Shown here in pieces: positions 3,560 to 45,310 of a stretch of 64,000 nucleotides of DNA. The translations under genes were made by a program, and so were the position numbers. The notes under the pieces were generated by a model that saw only the letters and a list, made by a program, of their open reading frames with translations, searched no databases and was not told the origin of the DNA. Origin of the DNA: Chloroflexota bacterium (GTDB lineage: Bacteria > Chloroflexota > Anaerolineae > CAYNKW01); contig JBMOMT010000060.1 of the NCBI GenBank assembly GCA_049324835.1, forward strand, positions 126,517 through 190,516, given 5' to 3'. Every line of letters starts with the position of its first letter. Position 1 is the first letter of the stretch.

Positions 3560-5005
3560 TTACAGCGGCATGTTGCCGTGTTTTCTGGGTGGTGAGGGCG
3601 TCTGTTTGCTGCGTAAAACTGCCAGCGCGCCTACCAGCCGGCCACGGGTTTCCCCAGGCCGGATGATTTGATTGATCAGGCCGGCCTCGGCAGCTTCGAA
3701 GGCTGGCCTGTCGCCGAGCCGAGCCCACGGCCAGGCAAAGGTCAGATCGGCGGTGCGTCCCGGACAGCCCAGGGCTGCGTACAGGCTGCCGGATAGACGA
3801 TGCGTCACCACGGCGATGCGCGGCACTGTGGCCTCGGCGTAGGCAAAGGCCAGGCGCGCCGCATGGCGCACCAGGCCGCGCCTGGCCTGGTCTTTGTCGG
3901 CGGCAAAGCCGGGTGCATCGATCAGCGTGATCAGTGGGATGTTAAAGGCGTCGCACAGGCGCACCAAACGGGCCACCTTGTCGCTGGCATCTATTCCCAG
4001 CCGGCCATCGGTTTCTGCCGATTGCCAGGCCACCACGCCCACGGTGTGACCACTGAGCCGGGCAAAACCAACCACGATGGCAGGGGCAAAGTGGCGGTGC
4101 AGCTCGAAAAAGGTGTCCCGGTCGAAGAGATGGCCGAGCAGACATCGGGCTTCAAGAGGCGAGAAATTGGCGGTGGACAAGAGCGCGTCGAGGGTGTTGC
4201 CGTCTGGTTCGAGGTCGGGGTTGGACGGTGCAACGGGTGGCGCCTGGCGATTGCTGGTGGGCAGGTAACTCAACAGCCGTCGGCAGAGTGTGAGAGCCTC
4301 GGTCTCGTCGTCGGCGACCAGGTGGGCCACGCCGCTCATGCTGGCGTGGGCCATCGCCCCGCCCAGCGTCTCAAAATCGACCTCTTCGCCGGTGACGGTA
4401 CGGATGACATCGGGGCCGGTGATGAACATGTGGCTCAATCCACGCACCATGACGATGAAATCGGTCAGGCCAGGTGAGTAGACCGACCCCCCGGCGCACG
4501 GGCCGAGCATCAGCGAGATCTGGGGCACCACGCCGCTGGCCTGGGTGTTGCGCCAGAACAGATCGGCGTAACCGCTCAGGCTGCGCACCCCTTCCTGGAT
4601 GCGTGCGCCCACCGAGTCGTTGAGGCCGATGATCGGGTGGCCGCTTTGCAGGGCCAGTTCCATGACGCGGGCTACCTTGAGGGCCTGAGCTTCGGAGAAG
4701 GAGCCGCCAAAGACGGTAAAGTCCTGGGCATAGACGCACACCAGGCGGCCATCGACTGTGCCCGCGCCGGCGACGACGGCGTCGCCTGGCACGCGCCGCC
4801 CGGCCATATCGAAATCGGTGGCGCGGTGGGTCAGGTAGGGGTCTAGTTCCTGAAAGCTGCCCTGGTCCAGGAAACGGTCGATGCGCTCACGGGCGGTGAG
4901 CTTGCCCCTGGCGTGCTGGGCGTCGATCTGCTGCCTTCCTCCGCCCTGGCGGGCCTGGTCGCGGTAGGCCTCCAGTTTCTTCAGGTCATCTGCGGCTAGT
5001 ATCAT
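3560..5005 (-). CDS. acyl-CoA carboxylase carboxyltransferase (beta) subunit, PccB/AccD5-like
   Basis: N-terminus MILAADDLKKLEAYRDQARQGGG...HARGKLTARERIDRFLDQGSFQE and tandem carboxyltransferase N/C halves. 481 aa. Confidence 0.8.
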   Translation of the reverse strand: MILAADDLKKLEAYRDQARQGGGRQQIDAQHARGKLTARERIDRFLDQGSFQELDPYLTHRATDFDMAGRRVPGDAVVAGAGTVDGRLVCVYAQDFTVFGGSFSEAQALKVARVMELALQSGHPIIGLNDSVGARIQEGVRSLSGYADLFWRNTQASGVVPQISLMLGPCAGGSVYSPGLTDFIVMVRGLSHMFITGPDVIRTVTGEEVDFETLGGAMAHASMSGVAHLVADDETEALTLCRRLLSYLPTSNRQAPPVAPSNPDLEPDGNTLDALLSTANFSPLEARCLLGHLFDRDTFFELHRHFAPAIVVGFARLSGHTVGVVAWQSAETDGRLGIDASDKVARLVRLCDAFNIPLITLIDAPGFAADKDQARRGLVRHAARLAFAYAEATVPRIAVVTHRLSGSLYAALGCPGRTADLTFAWPWARLGDRPAFEAAEAGLINQIIRPGETRGRLVGALAVLRSKQTPSPPRKHGNMPL

Positions 5006-5027: not shown

Positions 5028-6434
5028 TCAATACGCGCCTCGACGGCGTAACACCGCGCCGATGGTGCGCCACAGGATTTTGAGATCCAGCAGGAGCGAA
5101 TAGTTTTTGATGTAGAACAGGTCTTCTTCGGTGTGCAGGTGCAAGGGTTTCTCGGAGCGGCCGTTCACCTGCCACCAGCCGGTGAGGCCCTGGGGTACGG
5201 TGAAGCGTTTGAGCTGCCAGTTTTCGTACCGATCTACCAGCCAGGGCAGTTCGGGGCGCGGCCCCACCAGGGTCATATCACCTTTGAGCACGTTGAACAA
5301 CTGGGGCAACTCGTCCAGGCTAAAGGCACGCAGAAAGCGACCCACGCGGGTGACGCGCGGGTCATCGGGGTGTTTGTGGATCATGTCGCCTTGGGCTGTG
5401 GTGCGGATCATCTCTGCCGAATGTGCCTCGGCGCCTCTGACCATGGAGCGGAATTTGAACATCCAAAAGAGCCGGCCGTTTTCTCCCATACGCTGCTGTT
5501 TGAAAATGACCGGTCCGGGCGAGTCGAGTCGGATGGCGAGGGTGATGAGGCCCATCAACGGCAGGCTGACAAGGGTCAGGACGCTGCCCACCACCAGATC
5601 GAAGGCTCGCTTGACCAGCCGTTGGGTATCGGTCAGCACCGGCTCGCGCAGGGTGATGAGTGGCATGCCGCCGAAATCCTCCACGGCTGCCCGCACAAAG
5701 ACCAGATTAAAATAATCCGGTACCACGCGGATGTTCACCGGTGTCTGCTGCAGGGCATAGGTAACCGCTGCCAGTCGCTCGTGATCTCGCAGGGGCAAGG
5801 CCAGCACCACCTCGTGAACGTCCAGTTGCTCTACCAGCCGGGGAGCATCCTGCGGTGTACCCAGAACGGGCAGACCGTTTTCGCGCAATTGGGGGTCATC
5901 GTCCAGGTAACCCACCACCTCCAGGCCTACCCAGGCGTAACGGCGGATCGTGGCCGCCACTTCTTGACCCACGGTTCCGGCGCCTACGATCAACACCCGC
6001 CGCGACTGATCGCGGTGGCCACCCTGCCAGAAAAAGATCAGCCGCAGAATCAGCCGCAACCCGACGAGGCAGATCAGGTCGAGGATGGCAAAATAGATCA
6101 CCTGCAAACGAGAGATATCACGAAAGGTAAAGTAGAGCATGCCGGCAAAGATAAACGTGGAAGTGAGAACGGCTGCTACGAGCTGTTGCAACTCGTCTTT
6201 CAGGCGCAGCATACGTTGAGGAGTATAGACGGCATAGATTTGGAACACCACGATCCAGATAGGGATGGCCATCAGGTAGATGTAGGCGCTGAGTTGGACG
6301 CCATAGGGCTTGATGGCGGCTCCCCATGGCAGCCAGAGGCGCGCAATGCCGGAAAGACGCAGGGTCGCTGCCGTGAGAGCCAGATCGGTCAGCAGCAACC
6401 ACAAGGCGAAACGCAGACTAGAGCGCTTCAGCAT
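5028..6434 (-). CDS. polyprenyl-phosphate sugar phosphotransferase (bacterial sugar transferase, WbaP/CpsE-like)
   Basis: N-terminal multi-TM region, Rossmann-like stretch VLIVGAGTVGQEVA, and C-terminal sugar-transferase block DELPQLFNVLKGDMTLVGPRPELP...GLTGWWQVNGRS. Start set to internal ATG 6432-6434 (MLKRSSLRFALWLLL). Confidence 0.8.
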   Translation of the reverse strand: MLKRSSLRFALWLLLTDLALTAATLRLSGIARLWLPWGAAIKPYGVQLSAYIYLMAIPIWIVVFQIYAVYTPQRMLRLKDELQQLVAAVLTSTFIFAGMLYFTFRDISRLQVIYFAILDLICLVGLRLILRLIFFWQGGHRDQSRRVLIVGAGTVGQEVAATIRRYAWVGLEVVGYLDDDPQLRENGLPVLGTPQDAPRLVEQLDVHEVVLALPLRDHERLAAVTYALQQTPVNIRVVPDYFNLVFVRAAVEDFGGMPLITLREPVLTDTQRLVKRAFDLVVGSVLTLVSLPLMGLITLAIRLDSPGPVIFKQQRMGENGRLFWMFKFRSMVRGAEAHSAEMIRTTAQGDMIHKHPDDPRVTRVGRFLRAFSLDELPQLFNVLKGDMTLVGPRPELPWLVDRYENWQLKRFTVPQGLTGWWQVNGRSEKPLHLHTEEDLFYIKNYSLLLDLKILWRTIGAVLRRRGAY

Positions 6435-9092: not shown

Positions 9093-10166
9093 ATGAGGCA
9101 TGGCGGCAGGCTGTTAGGGCTGACATTGGCGTTGGCGGCGATGCTGCTGTCGGCGTGTGGCCGTCGAGATCTGACAGCACAGACGGAAATCGACCTGGCG
9201 CAAATCTTGCCTGCCTCATTGCGCGCCAAGAGTATCCAACGCCTCGATCCGGCAGCCGGAATAACCCGCCAATGGCTGGTGCTGTATGAATATGACTTTA
9301 CCGGAGAGTTCAGCCCCATCGCCGGGGTGGTGTATCGCGCCGATCGGGGGGGCAGCAACCGGCCGCCGGTGGTTTACCCTTATCCCCTTCAATTGCCAGA
9401 TCGAGACTACCTGGGCACTGACCAGGTGACCGTGGAGCCGCGCGACGTGCTCACCGCCCAGCCTGGCGCCGAGCTGGTGGTGGAGAACAGAAACGCCGCC
9501 GGCTTTGTGACCGAGGCGGCCATCTTTCGCTGGCACGATCCTTTTGCCGATGAAGTCTGGCGCGATCATAACCTGGAAGAGCGTTATTACGAGTGTATGG
9601 GGTTCTTTCGCAGCAATGGCCAGGTCACGGTGGGGTCGGATCTGGTGACTGTCGAAGAGTGGGTGGGTGATCGCAGCCAACTGGCTCGTATTCACACCTA
9701 TAAACCGGATGAACGAGGTTCTTACCTTGTTGATGGCATCACGGTCAGAGCAGCAGAGCGCTCCTACATCAATTTTGCGTTTGGTCAGAGCACCGACATC
9801 CTGGCCTCGCCTTACCCGGAAAAGATCGTCCTCGCCTTTTACAATGCTCTGGGTGGCCCCACCGAAGCGCTCAAACCTTATCTGAGCCAGGCCGGGCAGG
9901 AATTACTCGGCGCCGGGCTTGTGGGCTACGGATGTGTCTGGCCGCCGAGCCAGGTGGCCAGAGCCAGCGTATACGAAATCTCTTATTACCCTGGTGTGGA
10001 AACTCAGGCCAGGCAGGATGAGGCTCGCCGGGCGCTGGTGGAACTCAAGGTGCAGTGTTGGTCTCGAACGGGCCAGGCTATGCCGGAGGAAGCCCACGTC
10101 GGGTGGTTCCTGGTTCGAGAAAAAGGGAACTGGAGGATGGATCAGGTGTATCGGCCGGCGCAATGA
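9093..10166 (+). CDS. hypothetical lipoprotein
   Basis: Signal peptide with lipobox (LALAAMLLSACGRRD). 357 aa with no recognisable catalytic motif. GGAGGGG RBS at 9079-9086. Confidence 0.5.
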   Translation: MRHGGRLLGLTLALAAMLLSACGRRDLTAQTEIDLAQILPASLRAKSIQRLDPAAGITRQWLVLYEYDFTGEFSPIAGVVYRADRGGSNRPPVVYPYPLQLPDRDYLGTDQVTVEPRDVLTAQPGAELVVENRNAAGFVTEAAIFRWHDPFADEVWRDHNLEERYYECMGFFRSNGQVTVGSDLVTVEEWVGDRSQLARIHTYKPDERGSYLVDGITVRAAERSYINFAFGQSTDILASPYPEKIVLAFYNALGGPTEALKPYLSQAGQELLGAGLVGYGCVWPPSQVARASVYEISYYPGVETQARQDEARRALVELKVQCWSRTGQAMPEEAHVGWFLVREKGNWRMDQVYRPAQ

Positions 10167-32923: not shown

Positions 32924-35374
<2,451 letters not shown>

Positions 35375-35500
35375 CTGTTCGACTCTCCCGCCCGGCGGTC
35401 TTTTATGATGGGGGCAACTTTAGCATATTGTCTGGTGGATGTCAAGGTGTCTGGCTCGCGGTAGATTCGTTCTATGATCCGACCCTGCCGGATGACCGAC

Positions 35501-35541
35501 AAAAAAAAAAGACCCCCTGGGCAGGTTGTTGCCCTGGGGGC
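35501..35541 (-). terminator. rho-independent terminator (hairpin GCCCCCAGGGCAACAACCTGCCCAGGGGG + T10 on the minus strand)
   Basis: Plus strand shows A10 (35501-35510) then an imperfect GC hairpin at 35513-35541. On the minus strand this is a hairpin followed by a U-run, 22 nt after the EFR1 ferredoxin stop. It is the only clean intrinsic terminator downstream of the GntR-headed unit. Confidence 0.6.
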
Positions 35542-35562
35542 CGCACGGCGTCGCAGGCGCGT

Positions 35563-36624
35563 TTATCCCAGGTCTTTGAGTGTCGTCTCGGGTTCGTGAT
35601 AGCGGCGGTAATAGTGGGTGAGGGTGGCGTGGGTGAAGAAACGGTTGACCCACCCGATCCGCAGCAGGCGATGGAAGACGGGGTAGGCCAGTCCAAGGGC
35701 GATCAGGGGGTAAACCCACTCCAGCGCCTGGCGGGGTGTACCGTTCAACAAGGCCAGCAGGGGCGCGCGAGCCACTAGCCAGCCCAGGAGAGCCGAAAGG
35801 GGAAACACACTCGGCAGCAGGTAGATGCCCACGGCCAGTAAATGGCTGGCTTCCACTGCCTGCGTGGGACAAAAGACCATGCAGCGCATACAGCTCTCGC
35901 AACGAAAGGTCCAATACGGGCGAGGTTTGCTGCTGCCGCGCATCTCGATGGCCCCGTTGGGGCAGTGTGCGGCGCACAGCCCGCAGCCGGTGCAGCGTTC
36001 GGAGGCAAAGAACAGCTTGCCCAAAAACAGTCGCCCGATCAGCAAATAAGCCAGCGAGATAGGCAGAACCAGCAGGCCGATCAGAAAAGTGGTCCAATGG
36101 CCCAGGTGTCGTCTGCCGGACAGGAGTGTATCCATCAGACGGGTGGTTTTTCTCCGCGCCCGGGCCACGATGCCGGCCACTGTTTGGGGACGGAGGGCCG
36201 GATGCAGCGCCATCCAGTTGGAGGGCATGTCGATGCCTGCCGTGCCACGGATGCGATAGCCTTTCAGCGCCAGGATGAGCGCCACCAGCAGCGTGGCCGT
36301 GCCTTCGAACCCCGGCGTGAAGAATCGGCCGATGCGGCTGCCGGCGCGGGTGGCCACGGCCACGGCGTGGGTTCCGGCGCGGCGCGGCAGGCGCAGGGCA
36401 AAGCGCAGCACCGCCCAGGGCGCGGTGAAACCGTGAGTGGGCATGGCCAGGCCCAGCAGCGCCGTCTCGCCCGCGCCGATCTCTTCCGCCGGGCCGGCCG
36501 CCGCGATGGGCCGCACGGTGACGGTCGCGCCCGCCTCGCGGGCCGCCTCGGCCATCCAGGACGTGACGCGGTACGAGTTGCCGGTGCCGCTGTAAAAGTA
36601 AAACGTCGCCTCACGGTAGTTCAT
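35563..36624 (-). CDS. EFR1-type ferredoxin: flavodoxin-like N-domain + 2x[4Fe-4S] + C-terminal membrane domain
   Basis: N-terminal FYFYSGTGNSYRV (flavodoxin-like). CTGCGLCAAHCPNGAIEM and CESCMRCMVFCPTQAVE cluster motifs. C-terminal hydrophobic helices. Confidence 0.55.
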   Translation of the reverse strand: MNYREATFYFYSGTGNSYRVTSWMAEAAREAGATVTVRPIAAAGPAEEIGAGETALLGLAMPTHGFTAPWAVLRFALRLPRRAGTHAVAVATRAGSRIGRFFTPGFEGTATLLVALILALKGYRIRGTAGIDMPSNWMALHPALRPQTVAGIVARARRKTTRLMDTLLSGRRHLGHWTTFLIGLLVLPISLAYLLIGRLFLGKLFFASERCTGCGLCAAHCPNGAIEMRGSSKPRPYWTFRCESCMRCMVFCPTQAVEASHLLAVGIYLLPSVFPLSALLGWLVARAPLLALLNGTPRQALEWVYPLIALGLAYPVFHRLLRIGWVNRFFTHATLTHYYRRYHEPETTLKDLG

Positions 36625-37042
36625 GTTGTCTCTCCTTTGACCGTTTGCCGCACTTGCAGAGATAAACGATCAGCACCAACAACAGGGCGTCGCCGGCCGG
36701 GATGAGCCACGGACGGACGACATGGATGTGGCTGATGTCTTGCACCGTCAGGCCGGGGTTCATCGCGGCGGCGATCACGTCCAACAGGCCGTGGACAAAG
36801 ATGAGGCCGACAATCCCGCCGGCGCGCCAGCGGATGAGGCCGAAAAGCAGGCCGAAAAGACCCGTCCCCAACGCGCCCAGCGGTCCCTGCCAACAGATAC
36901 GCGGCGATCTGAGCCGACATCTGCCAGACGGTGTCCGTCACGTTGGGCCACAGCCACAGGTAGGCCGGCAGAAACAAAAGGCCAACCTCGGCGAGGGCCT
37001 TCGATCCGGGCCGAGTGCGCTGCCACACGATCGCACCTCGCG

Positions 37043-37882
37043 TCACGGCTCGGGGCCAGCCGCCCTCTCGGCGCGGCGAGTGGCCCACAGGATGGCCACG
37101 CTGCCCAACGAGAGAACCGCCAGCGCTGCCTCGGCGGCTTTTCCGCCCCACGCGCCGTTGATATAAACGGCCACGGCGTTGAGCAGCGCGTGCCAGCCGA
37201 TGGCCGCCCACAGCGGCCACAACCGCCCCCGCAGGAAAACCTGCATCACCAGCGCCGCCGCCGAGAGGTGAAACAGCATGGCCATCAACCGTTCGGCGGC
37301 GGCCAGCAGCGGCATGTAGGCCGGCGTGGCCCAGAATGCTTTCACCTGACGGGCGGCCTCGGCGGCCTGCTCGGCGGGCAGGCCCAGCGCGGTCACGTCG
37401 ACGCCGCGCATGGCGGCCATGTTCAGCAACGTGACCCCCACCAGCAGCCCGGTGAGCATCGCTTCCACCCCGCCGTGACCCGCGCCAAACATGAGCGCCT
37501 GCCGCCAGGTGCGGGCCTCCTTGAGCCAGAAGCGATAGACCAGGTAGCGGGCCGTCTCCTCGCACAGGCCGGCGGTGAGGCCCAACACGACGGCGTTAAA
37601 GGGTAACTGCCACGCCTCCGGCGGCTTGGGCATCCAGTCGAGATTAAACAGCGCGGTCAGCCCAAAGTTGAGCGGCAGATGCACCACCTGCGAGCCGACA
37701 AAGGCCACCGCCCCGGCGAAAAAGAGCGTCCACGGCAGCCGCCACCGTCGCCAGAGGAACAATCCCAGCGCTACTGGCGCGCCGAGCATGATGGTGATTT
37801 CGATGAGAAAAACAACAGTGAGCAGAGATGACCTCCCTCGGCTGGTAGTTGGTAGATGGGCGAGTCGTTTCCCAGTTACCAA
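37043..37882 (-). CDS. YhfC/CPBP-type intramembrane metalloprotease
   Basis: EExxR (GLCEETARYL), GxGHGGxE (FGAGHGGVEAM), and HxxxN (WHALLNAVAVYI) within a polytopic membrane protein. The true start may be an internal or alternative codon. Confidence 0.5.
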   Translation of the reverse strand: MVTGKRLAHLPTTSRGRSSLLTVVFLIEITIMLGAPVALGLFLWRRWRLPWTLFFAGAVAFVGSQVVHLPLNFGLTALFNLDWMPKPPEAWQLPFNAVVLGLTAGLCEETARYLVYRFWLKEARTWRQALMFGAGHGGVEAMLTGLLVGVTLLNMAAMRGVDVTALGLPAEQAAEAARQVKAFWATPAYMPLLAAAERLMAMLFHLSAAALVMQVFLRGRLWPLWAAIGWHALLNAVAVYINGAWGGKAAEAALAVLSLGSVAILWATRRAERAAGPEP

Positions 37883-37898
37883 TCTCCCAATGTACCAG

Positions 37899-39227
37899 CT
37901 ATTCGTAGCGCAATGCCTCCACCGGGTCGAGCCGCGCGGCGCGGTTGGCCGGCAGCAACCCCGCCAGCAGGGCCACCCCCGTGCTGAGGACGATGACGGT
38001 GATCACCAGCCACGGCGGGAAACGCGAGATGTTGAACGTGGGATAGTCGCTCAGGAACGTGGCGCGAGCGGCCAGGTTGATGATCTGGCCGACGACCCAG
38101 GCGGCGGCGACGCCAACCAGGCCGCCGAAAAAGCCGATGCTGCCCGCCTCGACGGTGAACAGGAAGCGGATCGTGCCTCTGGACGCGCCGACGGCCTTCA
38201 TGACGCCGATCTCGCGTGTGCGCTCATAGATGGCCATGATGAGCGTGTTGACGATGCCCAGGCTGGCCACGGCCAGCGCGATCAGCCCCACCACACTCAG
38301 CACGCCTTCGATGACGGCAAACACGCCGCGCAGCTCGCCTGCCGCATCGTCGGCGGTGTCGGCCTCGAAATCGCCCAATTCTTCGATGGCGCGGGCTACG
38401 GCATCGGTATTTTTGGGATCGTCGACCGTCACCGCGGCGGCAAAGCCCATGTTCTGGTCGGTATAGTACTCGTCGTCCTCGTTAAAGTAGCGCGCCATCT
38501 CCACGCCATCCTCGTAGGGCACGACGACCTCGGTCGAGGCGATGCTGTCCTCCAGCACGCCGACGATCTCAAAGGTGTAATCCTGCCCCTCCGGCTCCTT
38601 GCTCGAAAAGGGGTTGACCTGGTAGCCCTGGCTCACCCGCACTTCGATCTCTCTGCCCAACGCCTCCTCCGGCCAGGACAGTCCCCACACGTCCAGGTAG
38701 GCATAGGCCACGACTGCCTTGCCCCGGTCGCCATCTTTCAGGCTCCGCCCGGCGGCGATGCCTCGCGTTTCCAATTCGTTGGGTGACAGCGACTCCAGCG
38801 AGACCTGGAAGCGTTTGTCTTGCCCCACCAGCCTGACCCAACGCGCCAGGACGACGATCACCGGGTCGACGCGCTCGACGTGCTCCAGCGCGGCGATGCG
38901 GGCCAGGTCTTGGCCGGTGAAGGTTTTGAACGCGCCGATGGGGTTCAACTGGCCCTCCTGCACTTCCTGTGGCTGCCCGCCAAAGCCGGTGGTGCTCAGG
39001 ATCAGGCCCAGCGTGCCGCCGGCCATCCTGGGTTGCACGGAAACGATATCCGGCGCTTGCAGTGAGCTGAACTGGGCGGTGATAAAGTTCTGCGCCCCCG
39101 CACCCAGGCTGACCAGCAGCGCCACGAGCGTCGCGCCGATGACCACCGCCATGACTGTCAACAGCGTGCGTAGTTTACGCCGCCACAGGTTGGTGATGGC
39201 CGTCCGCAGATAGTCTCTAAACAGCAT
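37899..39227 (-). CDS. ABC transporter permease, FtsX/MacB-type
   Basis: [46 protein letters not shown], a large periplasmic loop, and C-terminal FtsX 3-TM block. Start at internal ATG 39225-39227, overlapping the ATPase gene by 11 nt. Confidence 0.8.
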   Translation of the reverse strand: MLFRDYLRTAITNLWRRKLRTLLTVMAVVIGATLVALLVSLGAGAQNFITAQFSSLQAPDIVSVQPRMAGGTLGLILSTTGFGGQPQEVQEGQLNPIGAFKTFTGQDLARIAALEHVERVDPVIVVLARWVRLVGQDKRFQVSLESLSPNELETRGIAAGRSLKDGDRGKAVVAYAYLDVWGLSWPEEALGREIEVRVSQGYQVNPFSSKEPEGQDYTFEIVGVLEDSIASTEVVVPYEDGVEMARYFNEDDEYYTDQNMGFAAAVTVDDPKNTDAVARAIEELGDFEADTADDAAGELRGVFAVIEGVLSVVGLIALAVASLGIVNTLIMAIYERTREIGVMKAVGASRGTIRFLFTVEAGSIGFFGGLVGVAAAWVVGQIINLAARATFLSDYPTFNISRFPPWLVITVIVLSTGVALLAGLLPANRAARLDPVEALRYE

Positions 39228-39909
39228 GGGCCGCCTCCCCGTTGTCCTGCACGATCCGACCGTCGCGCAGGGCGATGTGCCGGCCGGCAAAGGCGGCCAC
39301 GTCAGGATCGTGCGTCACCACGATCACCGTCAGGCCGCGCTCGCGGTTGAGCCGGACCAACAGCTCGACGATGCCCATGCCGGTGGTGCTGTCCAGGTTG
39401 CCCGTCGGTTCGTCGGCCAGCAACAGCCTGGGCTGGTTGGCCAGCGCGCGGGCGATGCTCACCCGCTGCCGTTCACCGCCGGAAAGCTCTGTTGGCTTGT
39501 GACGCATCCGGTCGGCCAGACCGATGGCCTCCAGCGTCTCGCGTGCCCGGGCCAGCCGCTCTTTACGCGGCGCGCGGGCAAAGACCAGTGGCAGGGCCAC
39601 GTTCTCCAGCGCGGTGAGCGTCGATTGCAGGTTGAACGTCTGAAAGACAAAGCCCACCTGGGCGTTGCGATACCTGGATAGCTCGCGGTCGGTGGCCCGG
39701 CTCAGGTCCTGGCCGTTTACCACGATCGTGCCGGTGGTGGGGGTATCCAGCCCGCCGACGACGTGTAATAGCGTGCTCTTGCCGCTGCCCGAAGGCCCCA
39801 ACACGGCCACAAACTCTCCCTCGGCCACCGTCAGACTCACCCCATCCAGCGCGTGGATCGTCTCGTGGCCCATTTTGTAACTGCGTGTGACATCTCGCAA
39901 TTCGATCAT
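39217..39909 (-). CDS. ABC transporter ATP-binding protein (MacB/LolD-like)
   Basis: [28 protein letters not shown], Walker [25 protein letters not shown], Walker [13 protein letters not shown]. Start at ATG 39907-39909 rather than the GTG 39921 of the track. Confidence 0.85.
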
Positions 39910-39919
39910 ATCCAACCTC

Positions 39920-39968
39920 ACGCCTCACCTTTGACGTTTGACGTTTGACGTTTGACGCCCCACGCCTC
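39920..39968 (-). repeat. heptanucleotide tandem array 1 (ACGCCTC ACCTTTG ACGTTTG x3 ACGCCCC ACGCCTC; CGTCAAA units on the coding strand) immediately 5' of the MacB-like ATPase start
   Basis: Seven 7-bp units. The core is three perfect ACGTTTG, with four consecutive TTGACGT units read in the other phase, at 39931-39958. Flanked by direct repeats CACGCCTCAC at 39919-39928 and 39961-39970. Confidence 0.85.
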
Positions 39969-40764
39969 ACTTCCACCGCGTCAAAATCGTCTCCCGCTGA
40001 AAGAGCCGCACCGCCAGCCATAACACGCCCAGGTTGACCAACGCCACGACCGCCGTCGACCACAGCAGTATCTGCACGTTGAGAAAGATCTTGCCGGCCA
40101 GCACGGCGATGCTGACGCCGATGACCGGCACGATAAAAATCGCCGTGACCTGTTGGGCGGCGCGTGGATCGTTGAGCCGCGACGAGGCGATGACGCCGCA
40201 AGACGTGGACAGCAGCGCGAACAGCGGGCTGAGCAGAGCCATGCCCAGCGTCCACACCGGCCGCACCAACTGGGCGAACACCACCCGGCTGGCGATAAAG
40301 TACATGCCCACTGCCGTGAGCGCAAAGCTGAGCCAGGCCAGGATCACCGCCGGCGTCACGGCAGCGATCGTTTTGCCCACCAGCAATTCCGCCGTGCTGA
40401 CCGGCGTGGCCAGCAGCGGCTCCAGGCTGCGCGTCTCTTTTTCGCCGATGATGCTGTAGGCGGCGATATAGACGGGCAGGGCCATGGGGATGAGCAGCAG
40501 GTAAAACATGTACTGGTCGTTCATCAGCACGATAAAGCCGTCTTTGGCGCCCAACGCGGCCAGTTCGGGCGGCAGGCCAAAGGAACTGCTGCCCGTGTCG
40601 AGGTTGAGCTCCTCCTCCGGCGCACGCTGCATGAAATAGGTCGTGCCCAGGATCATGCCCACCATCAAGATGGGCAGCAGGGCCATCATGATGACCACCA
40701 TTTTGTTCTTGCGCATGTCGAGCCATTCTTTTTCGACGATGGCCCAAATTCGGTCTCCGTTCAT
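39967..40764 (-). CDS. ABC-2 type transporter permease
   Basis: MNGDRIWAIVEKEWLDMRKNKMVVIMMALLPILMV then 6 TM helices, typical of ABC-2 exporters. Confidence 0.75.
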   Translation of the reverse strand: MNGDRIWAIVEKEWLDMRKNKMVVIMMALLPILMVGMILGTTYFMQRAPEEELNLDTGSSSFGLPPELAALGAKDGFIVLMNDQYMFYLLLIPMALPVYIAAYSIIGEKETRSLEPLLATPVSTAELLVGKTIAAVTPAVILAWLSFALTAVGMYFIASRVVFAQLVRPVWTLGMALLSPLFALLSTSCGVIASSRLNDPRAAQQVTAIFIVPVIGVSIAVLAGKIFLNVQILLWSTAVVALVNLGVLWLAVRLFQRETILTRWK

Positions 40765-40944
40765 CGTTGTATCAGACTCCTATCCCAGACGAGCCGGAAT
40801 CGAAAAAAGCCAGAGCATTTCACCACCAGGACACAAAGACACCGAGCTCTTTACTTTTCTTCTTTGGGTCTTGGTGGTTAATCATCTCGCCAAGCGGGCA
40901 GCGATTTCACCGGCAAGGCACAGCTTTGTCGCAGAGACGACGCG

Positions 40945-41394
40945 CTATTTCCGGTTTTCCAGCCAGCGGCCGATGACGGCATAGTTAAAGTCGTGGCCGC
41001 CCAGGCAGCGCACTGCGCCCCACAGCCCGTAGAGCACCGTCAGGCCCATGATGCCCAGGGGCAGGATCATCAGGAACAGGCCGAACCACAACCCCGCCGG
41101 CGGCGTGGTCTGATATACATCGGGGTTGGCCATGAGCGGCGGCAGCAACAAGGCCATCCAGGCACAGCCCCAGCACGCCCACAAGACCCAGGTCAGCACC
41201 ATCGTTGCGATCTGGTAAACCAGCGCCTGGAGCGCCTGGCCGGCCGCGTAGGCCGATCTGTCCTTCTGCGTCACCCAGACCACCAGCGCCGCGGCGATGC
41301 CGCCGATGCCGTTGGTGAAAACCCCCAGCAGGATGCTGCCATGGGCCAACCCGGCAAGCACACGTTCCTCTTGGCTGGTCACCTTTGTCTCCAC
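40945..41394 (-). CDS. DUF4870-like small membrane protein
   Basis: QEERVLAGLAHGSILLGVFTNGIGGIAAALVVWVTQKD pattern (ER-x-A-x-L-x-H-x-S) with 3-4 TM. Embedded between the ABC ATPase and permease genes. Confidence 0.5.
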   Translation of the reverse strand: METKVTSQEERVLAGLAHGSILLGVFTNGIGGIAAALVVWVTQKDRSAYAAGQALQALVYQIATMVLTWVLWACWGCAWMALLLPPLMANPDVYQTTPPAGLWFGLFLMILPLGIMGLTVLYGLWGAVRCLGGHDFNYAVIGRWLENRK

Positions 41395-41406
41395 GTTGAG
41401 CCTCCT

Positions 41407-42321
41407 TTAGCTCTGCGATTCTTTCATCAGGTCAAAGTAGACCTGTTCCAGCGAGTGTTCTTCTTTTTCCACAAACTGCACCGCGCCGCCGGCCTCCACC
41501 AGCGCCCGCACCACTGCCGGGTTCTGCGATTCGGGATCATCCAACGCCACGCGGATCTGGCTGTCGAATTGCGAGACGCTTTTGACAAAGGGCAGCGCCT
41601 CCACGGCAGCGATGAGTGCGGGCGTGACCTCTGGCAGCCGGATGAGCACCGACTGCCCGTACAACCCGCGGCGCAGCGCCTCTGGCGTATCCACACGGAT
41701 GAGGTGTTGTTTGATGACACCCACGCGGTCGCACAGCCGGTCGGCCTCATCCAGGTTGTGGGTGCAGACAAAGATGGTGCGTCCCTGGCCACTGAGTTCC
41801 TCGACGAAATCGCGCACCACGCGGGCCGCCTCCGGATCGAGCGCGGAAGTCGGCTCGTCCAAAAACAGCACCGGCGGTTCGTGGAGCAACGCCCGGGCGA
41901 TGGCCAGCTTTTGGCGCATGCCTTTGGAAAAACCGCCCACCGGCTCGTGCCGCCGCTCCCACAGGCCGAGCATGGTCAGATACTTTTTCACCTGGCCGGG
42001 CGCGTCGTCCACACCGTAGAGCCTGGCGAATAGGCGCAGGTTTTCCTCCGCGTCCAGGCGTGGATACAGCCCCGGCGTCTCGGTGAGGATGCCAGCGCTG
42101 GCGCGGATGGCGTCGTCTTCGGCGCCGATCTGGTGGCCGTTGACCCAGGCTGTGCCGCTCGTGGGTGCGATGAGTGAGGCCAGCATCCGCACGGTCGTCG
42201 TTTTGCCGGCGCCGTTGGGGCCGAGGAAACCAAAAACTTCACCCTGACGCACCTCAAGCGTCAGGCTGTCTACGGCCAGGATGCCGTTGAAACGTTTGGT
42301 CAAACCTTGTGTTTGGATCAT
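41407..42321 (-). CDS. ABC transporter ATP-binding protein (ABC-2/DrrA-like)
   Basis: MIQTQGLTKRFNGILAVDSLTLEV, Walker A GPNGAGKTTT, signature FSKGMRQKLAIARAL, Walker B VLFLDEPTSALD. Confidence 0.85.
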   Translation of the reverse strand: MIQTQGLTKRFNGILAVDSLTLEVRQGEVFGFLGPNGAGKTTTVRMLASLIAPTSGTAWVNGHQIGAEDDAIRASAGILTETPGLYPRLDAEENLRLFARLYGVDDAPGQVKKYLTMLGLWERRHEPVGGFSKGMRQKLAIARALLHEPPVLFLDEPTSALDPEAARVVRDFVEELSGQGRTIFVCTHNLDEADRLCDRVGVIKQHLIRVDTPEALRRGLYGQSVLIRLPEVTPALIAAVEALPFVKSVSQFDSQIRVALDDPESQNPAVVRALVEAGGAVQFVEKEEHSLEQVYFDLMKESQS

Positions 42322-42330
42322 CCCTGTCTC

Positions 42331-42537
42331 CTAAAACCAGCGGTCGCCAGGCTCGCGGCGACGCGCCCCGCCCACGGGCCGCTTGAGCACGGCCACGAAT
42401 TCACCCTGAAGGCGCGTCGCGGCGATCACCTCCCACCCCTCTTCGCCCCACAGATTGAGCTCTTCTTCGATCTCTTCGGCGCGAAAGCCTTTGATCCCGA
42501 TGCCTGTTTTCAGCACTTTGTATTCCCACCTGGTCAT
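42331..42537 (-). CDS. DUF4177-like small protein
   Basis: MTRWEYKVLKTGIGIKGFRAEEIEEELNLWGEEGWEVIAATRL matches the M-x-WEYK start typical of DUF4177. RBS GGTGGAGGGAGC before the ATG. Confidence 0.55.
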   Translation of the reverse strand: MTRWEYKVLKTGIGIKGFRAEEIEEELNLWGEEGWEVIAATRLQGEFVAVLKRPVGGARRREPGDRWF

Positions 42538-42544
42538 GCTCCCT

Positions 42545-42607
42545 CCACCTCACGTTTGACGTTTGACGTTTGACGTTTGACGTTTCACGCTTCACGTTTC
42601 ACGCTGT
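42545..42607 (-). repeat. heptanucleotide tandem array 2 (ACGTTTG x4 then ACGTTTC ACGCTTC ACGTTTC ACGCTGT) immediately 5' of the DUF4177 start; distal units encode the stomatin C-terminus
   Basis: Four perfect ACGTTTG units at 42552-42579 plus four degenerate units to 42607. The last units overlap the stomatin stop (..SVKREA*). Same downstream context (CGTGAGG..GGAG..ATG) as array 1. Confidence 0.85.
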
Positions 42608-43577
42608 CAGACCCCATCGGAGCCATGCCTGCCAGAGATGTTACCCCGGCCAGCCCGCCCAGGTTCATCGTATCCACCGCGCTGCTGGGCACGATGACCA
42701 GCGCGCCGCGCTCTTTTAAGCCCTCGAAGAGCATGTTCATCGCCCGCAGGTGCAGCGCCACCGGGCTGTCTGCGTACGCCTCGGCCGCCTCGCGGAAGCT
42801 GTGGGCGATCTGCTTCTCGCTCTCGCCCAGGATGACCCGCGCCTGACGCTCACGCTCGGCTTGAGCCTGACGGCTCATGGCATCTTCCAGCGCCTCCGGG
42901 ATGACGACATCGCGGATCTCGACCGATTGCACCGTCACGCCCCAGGGGGTGGTGCGCTCGTCGATGATCTTTTGCAGCTCGGCGTCCATGGCGGCGCGAC
43001 CCACCAGGATGGCTGCCAGGTCCATCTGGCCGATGATCTCACGCAACGCCGTCTGCGCCGCCCAGGCGATGGCCACGCGATAGTCTTCCACTTCCAGGGC
43101 CGCCTTTTCGGCGTCCCACACCACCCAAAATAGCACGGCGTCCACATCAACGGGCACGGTGTCTTTGGTGAGCGTCTTTTCGGCGTTAAAGGGCGTGACC
43201 ATCACGCGGTGATCGATCCAGGCTGGAATGCTGTCCACGACGGGGATGACCCAGAACAGCCCCGGCCCTTTCAGGCCGCGAAACCTGCCAAAGCGCAGGA
43301 CGATGGCCTTTTCCCACTGGTTGGCTACCTTGATGGCGAACAGGAAAGCGAGACCCACCAGCGCGCCGGTCAGGACGATTGCTGCCAGGAACCAGTCGGC
43401 TGCGTCGATCAGGACGTCCAAAACAAGGGCCGTGACGATGCAGAGTGTCAGCACGATCACAAACACCGTCGTCGAGACGCCATTGACCATTTTCGAAAAA
43501 TTGTAAGCTTGTTGGGCAGATATACCTGACCTGTCTGTGCGTCGGGCCTGGACGCGAAGATACTTTGAGCTTTGCAT
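42585..43577 (-). CDS. stomatin/slipin-type SPFH (band 7) protein
   Basis: N-terminal TM, then IVLRFGRFRGLKGPGLFWVIPVVDS (the stomatin-type PHB start), then a coiled coil. Confidence 0.8.
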   Translation of the reverse strand: MQSSKYLRVQARRTDRSGISAQQAYNFSKMVNGVSTTVFVIVLTLCIVTALVLDVLIDAADWFLAAIVLTGALVGLAFLFAIKVANQWEKAIVLRFGRFRGLKGPGLFWVIPVVDSIPAWIDHRVMVTPFNAEKTLTKDTVPVDVDAVLFWVVWDAEKAALEVEDYRVAIAWAAQTALREIIGQMDLAAILVGRAAMDAELQKIIDERTTPWGVTVQSVEIRDVVIPEALEDAMSRQAQAERERQARVILGESEKQIAHSFREAAEAYADSPVALHLRAMNMLFEGLKERGALVIVPSSAVDTMNLGGLAGVTSLAGMAPMGSDSVKREA

Positions 43578-43586
43578 GTTGTCCTC

Positions 43587-43982
43587 CTAATGTGCTTTCA
43601 CGCGGCTGAATACTTTTTCCAGTTTGTTCTGGAAGGTCTGTTCCACTTCTCGACGGCTGTACCCCAGGTTGGCCAGTTCATCCAACGCCGTGACGATGAT
43701 GAGCCTCATTTTTTCCTCTCGCATGTGGGTCAGTGACTCCTCTTCGGGGCTATCGGCCACAAACGTGCCCCGCCCCCGTTGGGTAGAGATGAGCCCTTCC
43801 CGTTCGAGTTCAAAATAAGCCCGCACGACGGTGTTAAAGTTGATGCGCAGGTCGGTGGCCAGTTGCCGGATGGTGGGCAGTTGATCGCCTGGCTTGAGTT
43901 GTCCCGCTGCGATCTGGGCCTTGATCTGCTCCGTGATCTGGGCGTATATCGGCAACCGGCTTTCGGTGTCGATCTGGACCAC
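43587..43982 (-). CDS. GntR family transcriptional regulator, short YtrA-like subtype
   Basis: winged HTH LPIYAQITEQIKAQIAAGQLKPGDQLPTIRQLATDLRINFNTVVRAYFELEREGLI. Only about 130 aa (short C-terminal domain). GTG start at 43980-43982 with AGGAGG RBS. Confidence 0.8.
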   Translation of the reverse strand: MVQIDTESRLPIYAQITEQIKAQIAAGQLKPGDQLPTIRQLATDLRINFNTVVRAYFELEREGLISTQRGRGTFVADSPEEESLTHMREEKMRLIIVTALDELANLGYSRREVEQTFQNKLEKVFSRVKAH

Positions 43983-44013
43983 GCCTTGCCTCCTATTGTA
44001 ATACTAATACATT

Positions 44014-44053
44014 ATTGTACTAGTATTATAGTACAATTTTGGGAAAATGTCAA
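44014..44053 (-). promoter_or_regulatory. consensus sigma-70 promoter (TTGACA-17-TATAAT) overlapped by a 9-6-9 palindrome ATTGTACTA-N6-TAGTACAAT: promoter and likely operator of the GntR-headed unit
   Basis: On the minus strand TTGACA (plus 44048-44053), 17-nt spacer, TATAAT (plus 44025-44030). Palindrome at 44014-44037 covers the -10 and transcription start. The region is sharply AT-rich in a GC-rich genome. Confidence 0.65.
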
Positions 44054-44118
44054 GGCCCAAAAAAGTCATCGAGTCTTTGCCGTTGCAGATTGGCTGCTCT
44101 ATGCTATAATGGACAAAC

Positions 44119-44267
44119 GTAACTGCTCAGCCTACCCTCCCGCAGGCTAAAATCGTTTACCCTGTCCCACAATCTAGTCGACTGGACGCTGGCGAATCGG
44201 CAAATTGCGGCAGTGGGCACGGCATTGCCGTGCCCCTACAAGAGCCTGCGGGAGGGTGAGCAGTTAC
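44119..44267. repeat. MITE-like repeat element, copy C (most complete), flanked by 8-bp target-site duplication GGACAAAC
   Basis: Termini GTAACTGCTCAGCCTACCCTCCCGCAGGC ... GCCTGCGGGAGGGTGAGCAGTTAC (terminal inverted repeats). Direct repeat GGACAAAC at 44111-44118 and 44268-44275. Internal hairpin GGGCACGGCATTGCCGTGCCC. Confidence 0.8.
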
Positions 44268-44353
44268 GGACAAACATGGAACCAGGTGTTGGTTTTGACC
44301 GTCTATGAAACAGGTATCACACTTTTGCTGCCATGACATTCAAGGAGGAGAAC

Positions 44354-45310
44354 ATGAAACAGCTACGTCCCCCCAGCCCTTTGCCTGTTCTGTTGATCCT
44401 GTTGGCGGCAGCCCTGATCGTCGCCGGCTGCGCCAAATCGCCCTCAGAGAGGACCGAACAGGTTGTGCGGGAGATGGTCAGAGAGACGGTGGTCGTCGCC
44501 GGCACGCCGCAAGTGGCGGAAAAGGAAGGCGTGCCCGCGCCGACCATGCCACCCCAGGCAGGAGACGGCGTGGCTCCGCTGCCGGTGGCCTACCGCGTCA
44601 ACCGTATGATCATCAAAAACGCCGAACTGCGCCTGCAAGTGACCGACACCGACCGCGCCATCGATCAGGCGACCCAGATCGCCGCCGACACTTTTGGTTA
44701 CATCCTCTCTGCTCGCACCTGGTACCAGGCCGATTATAAATACGCTACTGTCACCATCGGTGTGCCGGTGGACGAGTTCGAGAACGCCGTGCGCCGCTTG
44801 CGGGCGCTGGCCCTCAAGGTGCTGGACGAAAACGCCTCCGGCAGCGACGTCACCGACCAGTACGTCGATCTGGAGTCGCAACTGCGCAACCTGGAGGCCA
44901 CTGAAGCCCGTATCCGCTCTTTCCTCGACAAGGCCACCACCGTCGAAGAGGCGTTGCTGGTCAACCAAAAGCTGGCCGACATTACCGCTCAGATCGAACA
45001 GATCAAGGGTCAGATGAATTATCTCCAGGATCGGGCGGCCTACTCGACCATCACCGTTCACCTGGAACCGGATGTTCCCACACCCACCCCCACACCCACA
45101 CCCACCCCCACACCCACGCCCACGCCAGAGGCCTGGCGTCCGGCGGAGACCTTGGGCAGCGCCACGGGTGTACTGGGTGCCATCCTGCGGATTCTGGGCG
45201 ATCTGATCATCTGGGTCACGGTGGTGTTGGGGCCGTTCATTCTGCTGCTGGCCTTCATCATCTGGATTGGCGTCCGTCTGCGGCGGCGCTGGCGCAAACC
45301 AGCCGCGTAG
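44354..45310 (+). CDS. DUF4349-like lipoprotein with coiled-coil region, (PT)10 linker and C-terminal TM anchor
   Basis: RBS AAGGAGGAG then ATG 44354. Lipobox LIVAGCAKS. Coiled-coil block ([21 protein letters not shown]...[28 protein letters not shown]). C-terminal TM. Confidence 0.5.
   Translation: [318 protein letters not shown]

Follow-up and report, generated by a model that had tools for sequence, protein, structure and literature searches.

A conserved GntR-slipin operon with a modular membrane-protein tail in uncultured Anaerolineae, probably under its own repressor

The window analysed here, a stretch of 64,000 nucleotides (nt) from contig JBMOMT010000060.1 of an uncultured Anaerolineae bacterium (Chloroflexota), carries a cluster of genes for a short GntR regulator, a slipin (a stomatin-type SPFH protein), two different ABC exporters and further membrane proteins. 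The cluster is a real operon that is conserved in uncultured Anaerolineae, and it consists of a fixed GntR-slipin head, found throughout the class, and a modular tail that has often been reshuffled. In the window the locus is probably one autorepressed operon of ~8.5 kb on the minus strand, 44053-35497, from which the gene set would be read as a single transcript. It is a lineage-specific variant of known envelope-stress operons, among them ytrABCDEF of Bacillus, and no new type of system. Genes were called from the listing of open reading frames (ORFs) together with Pfam and NCBIfam scans, and the eight genes of the original prediction, made from the letters alone, stand in content, order, strand and coordinates, with Pfam confirming each of the eight families and all genes of the cluster on the minus strand. 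From promoter to terminator the parts are these:

44025-44053, minus strand: sigma-70-type promoter, TTGACA-17 nt-TATAAT, agreeing with the consensus at 12 of 12 positions.
43997-44036, minus strand: operator-like repeats, a palindrome at 44036-44015 and TGTATTAGTATTACA at 44011-43997.
43587-43982, minus strand: putative GntR repressor of the YtrA subfamily, 131 amino acids (aa), a winged helix-turn-helix and a C-terminal part of ~55 aa.
42585-43577, minus strand: slipin (stomatin-type SPFH/Band_7) scaffold, 330 aa, with a hydrophobic N-terminal anchor region.
42331-42537, minus strand: DUF4177 protein (Pfam), 68 aa, a soluble beta-alpha-beta-beta mini-domain.
41407-42321, minus strand: ABC ATPase of the DrrA/ABC-2 type, 304 aa (Pfam ABC_tran and DrrA1-3_C).
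40945-41394, minus strand: DUF4870 (HOTT/MamF-like, Tic20 superfamily) membrane protein, 149 aa (Pfam 6e-14).
40765-40944, minus strand: spacer of 180 nt with a hairpin of 10-bp stem, at the junction of DUF4870 and the ABC-2 permease.
39967-40764, minus strand: ABC-2 family permease, 265 aa (Pfam ABC2_membrane_2, ABC2_membrane_3, ABC2_membrane and ABC2_membrane_4).
39217-39921, minus strand: ABC ATPase of the LolD/MacB type, starting at GTG 39921 (234 aa) or, more probably, at ATG 39909 (230 aa).
37899-39227, minus strand: FtsX permease with a MacB periplasmic core domain, 442 aa, its gene overlapping that of the ATPase by 11 nt.
37043-37882, minus strand: putative intramembrane metalloprotease of the YhfC family, 279 aa if read from TTG 37882, though translation may begin further downstream.
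36611-37028, minus strand: pseudogene of a CPBP (Rce1-like) protease, between YhfC and EFR1.
35563-36624, minus strand: ferredoxin of the EFR1 family, 353 aa, with a hydrophobic C-terminal extension (Pfam Fer4).
35497-35541, minus strand: intrinsic terminator, a GC-rich hairpin and T10, with the centroid stem at ~35541-35509 and the T-run reaching to ~35497.

The conservation of the unit was surveyed with the slipin as seed and one genome per GTDB species, and 80 loci, all of them from Chloroflexota, were kept from 570 hits. They were analysed by tblastn with ten window proteins, by all-against-all clustering of their ORFs and by Pfam on the cluster representatives; L-numbers (L002, L088 etc.) are the labels of related contigs and loci that were compared with the window. 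Among the 78 loci with enough upstream sequence, 74 have a GntR gene directly upstream of the slipin, and the predicted role of the GntR gene as the head of a co-directional unit conserved elsewhere is borne out. The exceptions include L040 and L051, where the order is GntR-ATPase-permease-slipin-YhfC and still makes up one cluster, and L037, where the GntR gene lies ~2.3 kb upstream of the slipin. Since the arrangement recurs in dozens of independent genomes, it is not a chance juxtaposition. The tail was counted as the co-directional run after the slipin in the 55 loci with at least 5 kb downstream, with a crude run-calling heuristic, and the counts are to be read as lower bounds: an ABC ATPase together with an ABC-2 permease in 28 loci, DUF4177 in ~22, YhfC in ~20, an SdpI/DUF1648 protein in 19, a CPBP protease in 11, DUF4870 in ~4 and MacB/FtsX in one (L014). 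A separate look-up also found MacB/FtsX on the metagenome contig L006, and the gene order ATPase-permease-MacB ATPase-FtsX is repeated in L006 and L014. The neighbourhood comparison thus supports a strong co-conservation of GntR and slipin, but the eight genes are not one fixed unit, because DUF4870 and MacB/FtsX are seldom found beyond the close clade.

That clade comprises the contigs whose slipin is 80-98% identical to that of the window. L093/L094 have the order slipin-DUF4177-ATPase-bPH_2-DUF4870-permease-MacB ATPase-FtsX-YhfC-CPBP-EFR1, and L088, with 95-97% DNA identity to the window, has the same order up to the end of its contig. L090/L091 are without MacB/FtsX and continue from the permease directly to YhfC and EFR1, and judged from these gene orders MacB/FtsX appears to be a cassette inserted after the permease. 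The suggestion that the unit extends to YhfC and EFR1 holds within this clade (L088, L090/L091, L093/L094).

The putative control region lies in front of the GntR gene. When the corresponding regions from 64 related loci were aligned, CTTGACA followed by a TA(C/T)AAT -10 box was found upstream of the orthologous GntR gene in 55. In the window a perfect 22-bp palindrome, TTGTACTA-N6-TAGTACAA, at 44036-44015 overlaps the -10 box and the predicted start of transcription and is followed by TGTATTAGTATTACA at 44011-43997, and the half-site repeats make up the -10 box and the ~35-nt leader. The palindrome occurs once in the 64 kb, and no second operator was found in the window, either as a palindrome with up to 3 mismatches or as an array of TACAA. 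The TACAA/TTGTA half-site is kept at the same position in the relatives, as palindromes or as tandem repeats; downstream of the CTTGACA promoter they have palindromes of the TGTACTAG type or, in most cases, 3-6 tandem 8-bp units with the core TACAA. A search for such arrays (at least 3 exact cores with a period of 8 bp, both strands, 1.24 Mb of related loci) placed 29 of 29 at the GntR promoter and none elsewhere. It is thus probable, as judged from the letters, that the GntR protein binds the palindrome and represses its own operon.

The regulator itself fits such a role. Its N-terminal winged helix-turn-helix is matched by Pfam PF00392 at residues 13-75 (5.3e-18), its best solved relatives are the YtrA-subfamily proteins 4ham, 6sbs, 3neu, 3by6 and 4r1h (121-134 aa), and residues 2-115 align with the 134-aa Lmo2241 (4ham). 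In the YtrA subfamily the C-terminal domain is reduced to ~50 aa and two helices and the whole protein to ~120-135 aa, and the regulon is usually one autoregulated ABC operon with a long palindromic site (PMC4494728). The window protein, with 131 aa, has the size of this subfamily, and the locus would also follow the operon rule, having the GntR as first gene, two ABC systems and a 22-bp palindrome over the -10 box. The prediction of a short YtrA-type GntR is thus confirmed by both length and PDB relatives. Among the short, YtrA-sized models of NCBIfam, PmtR and Rv1152 are the nearest, both well below their cut-offs, and two models of the MocR type score slightly above PmtR and match the shared N-terminal helix-turn-helix only. 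Because the score against the PmtR model NF047563, 78.5 bits, is far below the cut-off of 200, the window protein is not a PmtR orthologue, and it is best classed as YtrA-type with no orthologue among the named regulators.

The tandem variant of the operator deserves a description of its own. By the strict test at least 29 of the 80 loci have TACAA tandem arrays (L009, L016, L017, L020, L021, L023, L033, L042, L054, L087 and others), with a unit of 8 bp, occasionally 9 bp, ~350-750 nt upstream of the slipin start (in L016 at ~9500-9600). The promoter in these loci is CTTGACA-17-TACAAT, and the -10 box is itself the first repeat unit. An operator made of direct repeats would be unusual for a YtrA-type regulator, and the window carries the palindromic variant.

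Ribosome-binding sites are found 5' of most of the starts read in the cluster, and the genes are closely set: GntR and slipin are 9 nt apart, slipin and DUF4177 47 nt, DUF4177 and the ABC ATPase 9 nt, the ABC ATPase and DUF4870 12 nt, the ABC-2 permease and the MacB ATPase 45-57 nt and FtsX and YhfC 16 nt, while two junctions overlap, MacB ATPase/FtsX (-11 nt) and the CPBP frame with the EFR1 start (14 nt). The tiny gaps or overlaps that had been claimed are therefore found at most junctions, but not between DUF4870 and the ABC-2 permease, where 180 nt (40944-40765) separate the genes. A promoter scan found no promoter-like site within this spacer, and an Rfam scan of 35000-44600, which covers the spacer as well as the heptad arrays described below, gave no RNA family at E<=1. 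The predicted fold of the spacer does not stand out from those of shuffled sequences (z -1.4), which gives no grounds for reading it as an attenuator or RNA element; it is near-identical in L088 and 34 nt only in L090. The sole terminator of the unit stands at its end, and the one predicted at 35501..35541 is real, with a GC-rich hairpin and T10, although a mismatch inside the hairpin hid it from our rule-based scan.

It is conceivable, though somewhat unlikely, that the cluster is not one operon but several adjacent and independent transcription units, one of them GntR-slipin, possibly with DUF4177, the ATPase and DUF4870, and that the ABC-2 permease, MacB/FtsX and YhfC-EFR1 have their own promoters, with MacB/FtsX as a recent cassette under its own control. 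The hairpin-bearing 180-nt spacer before the permease gene would suit such a division, but an independent promoter that splits an ATPase from its own permease would be unusual. MacB/FtsX is missing in L090/L091 and rare in the class as a whole, and L093 has a junction of 219 nt with terminator-like hairpins before the MacB ATPase; in the window, on the other hand, the permease/MacB junction is 45-57 nt and is made up of repeat units and a ribosome-binding site, and the overlaps MacB ATPase/FtsX and CPBP/EFR1 suggest translational coupling. In L002 and L092 a promoter-like TTGACA...TAGGAT separates slipin from DUF4177, but the rule-based scan found no sigma-70-like promoter inside the window cluster other than that at 44053-44025. 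The identical gene order in independent contigs also argues for one transcript.

The nearest known layout is that of B. subtilis ytrGABCDEF, which encodes YtrA, YtrB2CD and YtrE2F2 and is induced by inhibitors of the lipid-II cycle (PMC12772383). Induction upon cold shock is a further mark of operons of this type. Like the window, it combines a short YtrA-type GntR autorepressor (putative in our case) with an exporter of the ABC-2 type and one of the MacB/FtsX type, in the same order, and the similarity to YtrE and YtrF is at the family level (YtrF 5e-28, YtrE 1.5e-55). Two exporters behind a YtrA repressor had been put forward as a novelty, and this must be given up, as the ytrGABCDEF layout is published (PMC12772383) and the best PDB match of the FtsX permease is YtrF. 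What is left of the claim that the unit had not been described is its slipin-headed version: our literature search found no paper on a GntR-SPFH-ABC operon. There are also differences. The slipin directly after the repressor, the most conserved member of the Anaerolineae operon, has no counterpart in ytrGABCDEF, and neither have DUF4177, DUF4870, YhfC, CPBP and the EFR1 ferredoxin. The window has one ABC-2 permease, together with a DrrA-type ATPase and, between these two, DUF4870, as against YtrC and YtrD, and it is without a small ytrG-like gene upstream of the repressor, an ORF for which there is no room because the promoter is ~40 nt from the GntR start. Finally, only a minority of the Anaerolineae operons include the MacB/FtsX genes.

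The first exporter is made up of the DrrA-type ATPase (264 bits against the drrA subfamily of NCBIfam) and the ABC-2 permease, which comes after the ATPase in the related loci as well; the window permease also weakly matches an 'ABC permease/CPBP protease' fusion family of NCBIfam. DUF4870 (for the background of the DUF4870/HOTT family see PMC11628618) is probably an accessory subunit of this exporter, as it consistently lies between ATPase and permease, in the window and in L088, L089, L090/L091 and L093/L094. The ATPase of the second exporter begins at the ATG in L088 and L093 as called, and it scores 254 bits against LolD and 249 bits against MacB in NCBIfam; in the PDB its matches are 5xu1_A (1.9e-70) and YtrE (1.5e-55), with LolD, MacB and 5xu1 above YtrE. 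The ORF of the FtsX permease (Pfam FtsX 1.7e-22, MacB_PCD 4.1e-21) could be extended to 39290, but the relatives begin at an ATG. By E-value its top PDB match is YtrF of B. subtilis (9o9x_C, 5e-28), over residues 213-442 only, while it aligns over its full length with the MacAB-like permease of S. pneumoniae, 5xu1_M. By these matches the pair classifies as a MacB-type (type VII) ABC transporter. The Pfam scan found no gene of the HlyD/MFP family, i.e. no MacA-like adaptor, in the cluster, and in this the pair is the same as YtrEF.

The slipin (Pfam Band_7 2.8e-37; named 'slipin family protein' by NCBI) is the best conserved of the proteins. It is 100% identical to a protein from a Chloroflexota metagenome-assembled genome (MAG) and 67-85% identical to hundreds of Anaerolineae proteins, and across the class it keeps 67-80% identity as against 41-59% for the GntR. 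Looked up by exact sequence, it was found on a single contig of 1.7 kb, while the representative of its protein cluster is recorded on a MAG contig of 227 kb at NCBI. Its PDB matches are PH stomatin (4e-40), human stomatin (1e-39), QmcA (3.5e-29) and HflK (3e-9), by which it is placed nearest the stomatins and not with HflK/C or the flotillins. The window resembles the stomatin/slipin-NfeD operons, where the partner is known as STOPP, and HflK/C-FtsH in having a stomatin-type SPFH gene beside membrane proteases. That an SPFH cage controls a protease is established for HflK/C-FtsH, and such control is usual in the SPFH family. The NfeD partner that is usual in stomatin operons was, however, found by Pfam neither among the genes of the window cluster nor among the 20 scanned clusters of recurrent neighbouring ORFs from the 80 related loci, and the neighbours are instead proteases of the YhfC and CPBP types. 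The literature search found no description of a slipin paired with a dedicated transcription factor.

At the tail end the YhfC family is well supported (Pfam 2.3e-29), and the gene that follows it, which was absent from the earlier gene list, is a remnant. Measured against the unbroken protein of L088, the CPBP pseudogene still encodes residues 1-48 and 158-253, in two different frames. An intact CPBP protease has the motifs EExxxR, FxxxH and HxxxD/N, and an internal deletion of 326 nt has removed the catalytic EExxxR and FxxxH motifs (EELLFRG, FGLYH); the gene is intact in L088 and L093/L094. The ferredoxin scores 108.7 bits against the EFR1 model NF038196 (cut-off 75, model positions 2-231 of 242) and has an extra hydrophobic C-terminal region of ~90 aa. 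It occupies the same place in L088, L090 and L093/L094, and none was found in the more distant loci. Between the ATPase and DUF4870, L088, L090/L091 and L093/L094 have a further gene of ~200 aa for a bPH_2 protein, a PH domain like that of YdbS/T, YdbS and YdbT being the type members of the family. In the window this gene is cleanly missing at ~41422-41382, where a comparison with L088 (2176-2858) gives a loss of ~680 nt. With the bPH_2 gene lost and the CPBP gene truncated, the window copy is eroding.

As for the function, the reading that we favour by analogy with known systems, and hold to be reasonably probable, is that the operon is autorepressed and defends the cell against antimicrobial peptides or stress on the membrane. 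A dimer of the GntR protein would bind the palindrome TTGTACTA-N6-TAGTACAA and the adjacent half-sites, and thereby occlude promoter, -10 box and leader; upon release of the repressor the whole set of membrane proteins would be made. The likeliest trigger would be a membrane-active compound or peptide, or damage to the envelope, as with Bacillus YtrA and staphylococcal PmtR. The products would then be the slipin scaffold, DUF4177, the ABC-2 exporter with its DrrA-type ATPase, permease and DUF4870, a MacB/FtsX machine equivalent to YtrEF, the YhfC intramembrane protease (CPBP now being dead) and a membrane-anchored EFR1 ferredoxin. Jointly they may rid the cell of agents that damage its membrane, by export or by neutralising them, and the slipin may serve to arrange the proteases and transporters in the membrane. 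Whereas the gene content, the promoter and operator-like sequences, the conservation and modularity, the decay in this genome and the family-level homology to YtrE and YtrF can be read from the sequences, we infer the single transcript, the repression by this GntR, the signal, the role in defence and the partnership of slipin and protease.

Some points weigh against this picture of one autorepressed defence operon. Internal starts or stops would have room in the 180-nt spacer that precedes the ABC-2 permease gene and, in L093, in the hairpin-rich junction between permease and MacB ATPase, and the operator of the window is palindromic, whereas most relatives carry tandem 8-bp repeats. The unit can evidently do without some of its parts, since bPH_2 and CPBP have been lost here, the EFR1 ferredoxin is without an obvious place in the proposed model, and nothing seen in sequence or structure ties the slipin physically to YhfC or CPBP. 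The ytr mutants of Bacillus, moreover, have weak and inconsistent antibiotic phenotypes (PMC12772383).

The cluster could also be read as a toxin with its own immunity, although we regard this as very unlikely. The leaderless DUF4177 protein would act in the manner of a bacteriocin and leave the cell through the neighbouring ABC transporter or transporters, CPBP, YhfC, SdpI-like and bPH_2 proteins would give immunity, and the GntR would sense the product, as PmtR does phenol-soluble modulins. The CPBP family does consist of classic immunity proteins, and in the window clade DUF4177 lies 9 nt before the ABC ATPase. An immunity role of SdpI/YfhL is documented (PMC8144471), and PmtR is a precedent for a YtrA-type repressor that is released by the toxin its own operon exports (PMC5080381). 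A recombinant protein from Clostridium tyrobutyricum consisting of DUF4177 only, PEG 446 (66 aa), has been reported as antibacterial, but the activity came from unpurified material (PMC11322243). The window protein is a rather acidic and compact domain, without signal peptide, leader or amphipathic cationic character. It is 63-94% identical over the relatives found, unlike the fast-evolving bacteriocins, DUF4177 is fused to a membrane segment in some relatives, and it is present in only ~22 of 55 operons while slipin and GntR are constant. The pmtR-pmtABCD operon is like the window in that a short GntR heads an ABC-2 exporter operon, and PmtR of S. aureus is released when amphipathic toxin peptides bind to it (PMC5080381). 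It encodes two ATPases and two ABC-2 permeases, however, and is without the SPFH, protease and MacB/FtsX genes of the window; a cognate peptide toxin is not evident at the window locus.

The AlphaFold2 (AF2) model of DUF4177 has a pLDDT of 78, and with Foldseek it gave no match in the PDB below E 0.078, the fold being a generic beta-alpha-beta-beta. A word-indexed protein search seeded with DUF4177 was shallow, returning 23 close relatives only and not reaching beyond Chloroflexota. Within the clade there is an invariant core (W4, Y6, K7, E24, E26, L27, W30, G31, G34) and a conserved basic tail ending in RRREPxDRWF, which is disordered in the AF2 model and there looks like a docking peptide. 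Against the 'Sp36 family' of NCBIfam the protein has a weak, sub-threshold score (31 vs 50 bits).

A comparison that speaks for the defence operon is the sigma-W antibiosis regulon of Bacillus, to which belong the SPFH proteins FloA and FloT, the SdpI paralogue YfhL, YdbST and the MacB-type YknWXYZ, and whose genes are induced by membrane-active antimicrobials (PMC8144471). With this regulon (yqeZ-floA-yqfB, yuaF-floT, yfhLM, ydbST and yknWXYZ) the Anaerolineae operons share SPFH scaffolds, an SdpI paralogue, bPH_2 proteins of the YdbS/T type and a MacB/FtsX exporter, and their wider repertoire also takes in an ABC-2 exporter and CPBP. The sigma-W genes are scattered and governed by an extracytoplasmic function (ECF) sigma factor, whereas those of Anaerolineae are gathered in one operon with a YtrA-type repressor, and the SPFH genes of Bacillus are paired with NfeD genes, of which none is seen in the window cluster.

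An SPFH protein together with ATPases could call to mind an anti-phage defence island, but this we consider extremely improbable. HEPN/nucleotidyltransferase pairs do lie inside the operon in L002/L003 and L090/L091, but as toxin-antitoxin pairs on the opposite strand and in some relatives only, and although L002 has a restriction-like gene set upstream, the genes that flank the operon are housekeeping genes and vary among the genomes. PADLOC gave generic cross-hits to the ABC ATPases and FtsX only, and nothing for GntR, slipin, DUF4177, DUF4870 or YhfC.

There is a further, bolder idea, which we regard as unlikely but worth stating. The single conserved slipin of Anaerolineae may have exchanged NfeD for proteases of the YhfC and CPBP types and have become the core of a dedicated stress regulon, in which the effector-less YtrA-type repressor would be freed without a small ligand, by capture at the membrane, as SdpI sequesters SdpR, or by direct binding of amphipathic peptides, and the arrays of 3-6 tandem 8-bp TACAA repeats would give a graded and cooperative repression. 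If true, SPFH proteins and proteases would be partners in a new way, and YtrA regulators would have a new route of signalling. Irrespective of that, the Anaerolineae, an abundant group in digesters, sediments and sponges, have hardly been cultured and their regulation is essentially unstudied, and the locus gives a class-wide regulatory unit with a predictable operator. It is a natural experiment in how an SPFH scaffold partners without NfeD, and an independent and distant version of the poorly understood ytr operon of Bacillus, and its conserved neighbours (slipin, YhfC/CPBP, SdpI-like, bPH_2) point to membrane and antimicrobial defence as the shared theme. It should be relevant to workers on SPFH proteins, YtrA regulators and Chloroflexota.

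Three heptad repeats are found within the cluster:

42552-42603, minus strand: heptad repeat 1, GTGAAAC/GTCAAAC, 7.4 copies, running from the final codons of the slipin gene through the spacer that precedes the ribosome-binding site of DUF4177.
39930-39957, minus strand: heptad repeat 2, (GTCAAAC)x4, just 5' of the ribosome-binding site of the MacB ATPase.
~37860-37840, minus strand: heptad repeat 3, of the CTACCAA type, at the 5' end of YhfC, whose start codon is uncertain.

The heptad arrays predicted before the exporter modules are real and not random: (GTCAAAC)n has 7 overlapping matches against 0.33 expected, both arrays are inside this cluster, and each heptad array stands just 5' of a purine-rich ribosome-binding string. 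A design feature of the operon they are not, because their copy number varies between the window and L088 (4 vs 0, 4 vs 2 and 2 vs ~4, at 95-97% DNA identity) and more distant relatives (L002, L004) are without heptads at these junctions. The sites in L088 are 1026-1050, 4276-4296 and 6366-6400, and that of repeat 1 has three degenerate seed units only. The heptads are thus hypervariable intergenic simple repeats of the lineage and not a conserved part of the operon. Arrays with a period of 7 and many different units, among them GTCAAAC, GTGAAAC, GTCAGGC, CGTGATG and CCAACTA, are scattered over the related loci (e.g. L018 11132-11186, L068 11125-11157). The exact (GTCAAAC)3 is present in at least 120 metagenome contigs (L095-L174 among them), and among the matches listed related heptads often stand between its copies, while in some the inverse (CGTTTCA)n comes next, with which it could form long hairpins. 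Such arrays resemble the STRR repeats of cyanobacteria, and the literature search found nothing on heptad repeats in Chloroflexi/Chloroflexota.

Some further observations concern the relatives. The opposite-strand HEPN/nucleotidyltransferase toxin-antitoxin pair stands between DUF4177 and the ABC ATPase, at 11443-12211 in L002, 4591-5359 in L003, 6033-6783 in L090 and 2299-3049 in L091. In L002/L003 the tail appears eroded, as only a truncated ABC ATPase of 147 aa is called after the pair, with no ABC-2 permease behind it. On the same strand, the operon is followed by genes for a response regulator and a histidine kinase in L090 (12212-14091) and L093 (9082-10961), and ORFs for GAF-histidine kinases are found in 11 of the 55 species loci (e.g. 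L085 12541-13791), where the window has the terminator and gyrA instead. In L092 the tail, DUF4177-ABC-CPBP-DUF4870, seemed to be detached from GntR-slipin; this is an artefact, since a run of N interrupts the slipin gene. The run lies at 9639-9739, in the 'complete' 4.87-Mb MAG chromosome CP070818, and the last slipin codons are visible.

On both sides the operon borders on genes that differ from genome to genome. Just downstream of the terminator there is a promoter-like site, followed by the gyrA gene:

35445-35417: promoter-like site of gyrA.

Upstream, a divergent gene at 44333-45310 on the plus strand, whose adjacency to the operon is not conserved in the relatives, encodes a DUF4349 protein with a C-terminal membrane segment and a (PT)n linker, the latter corresponding to a CCCACA hexamer repeat at 45077-45123.

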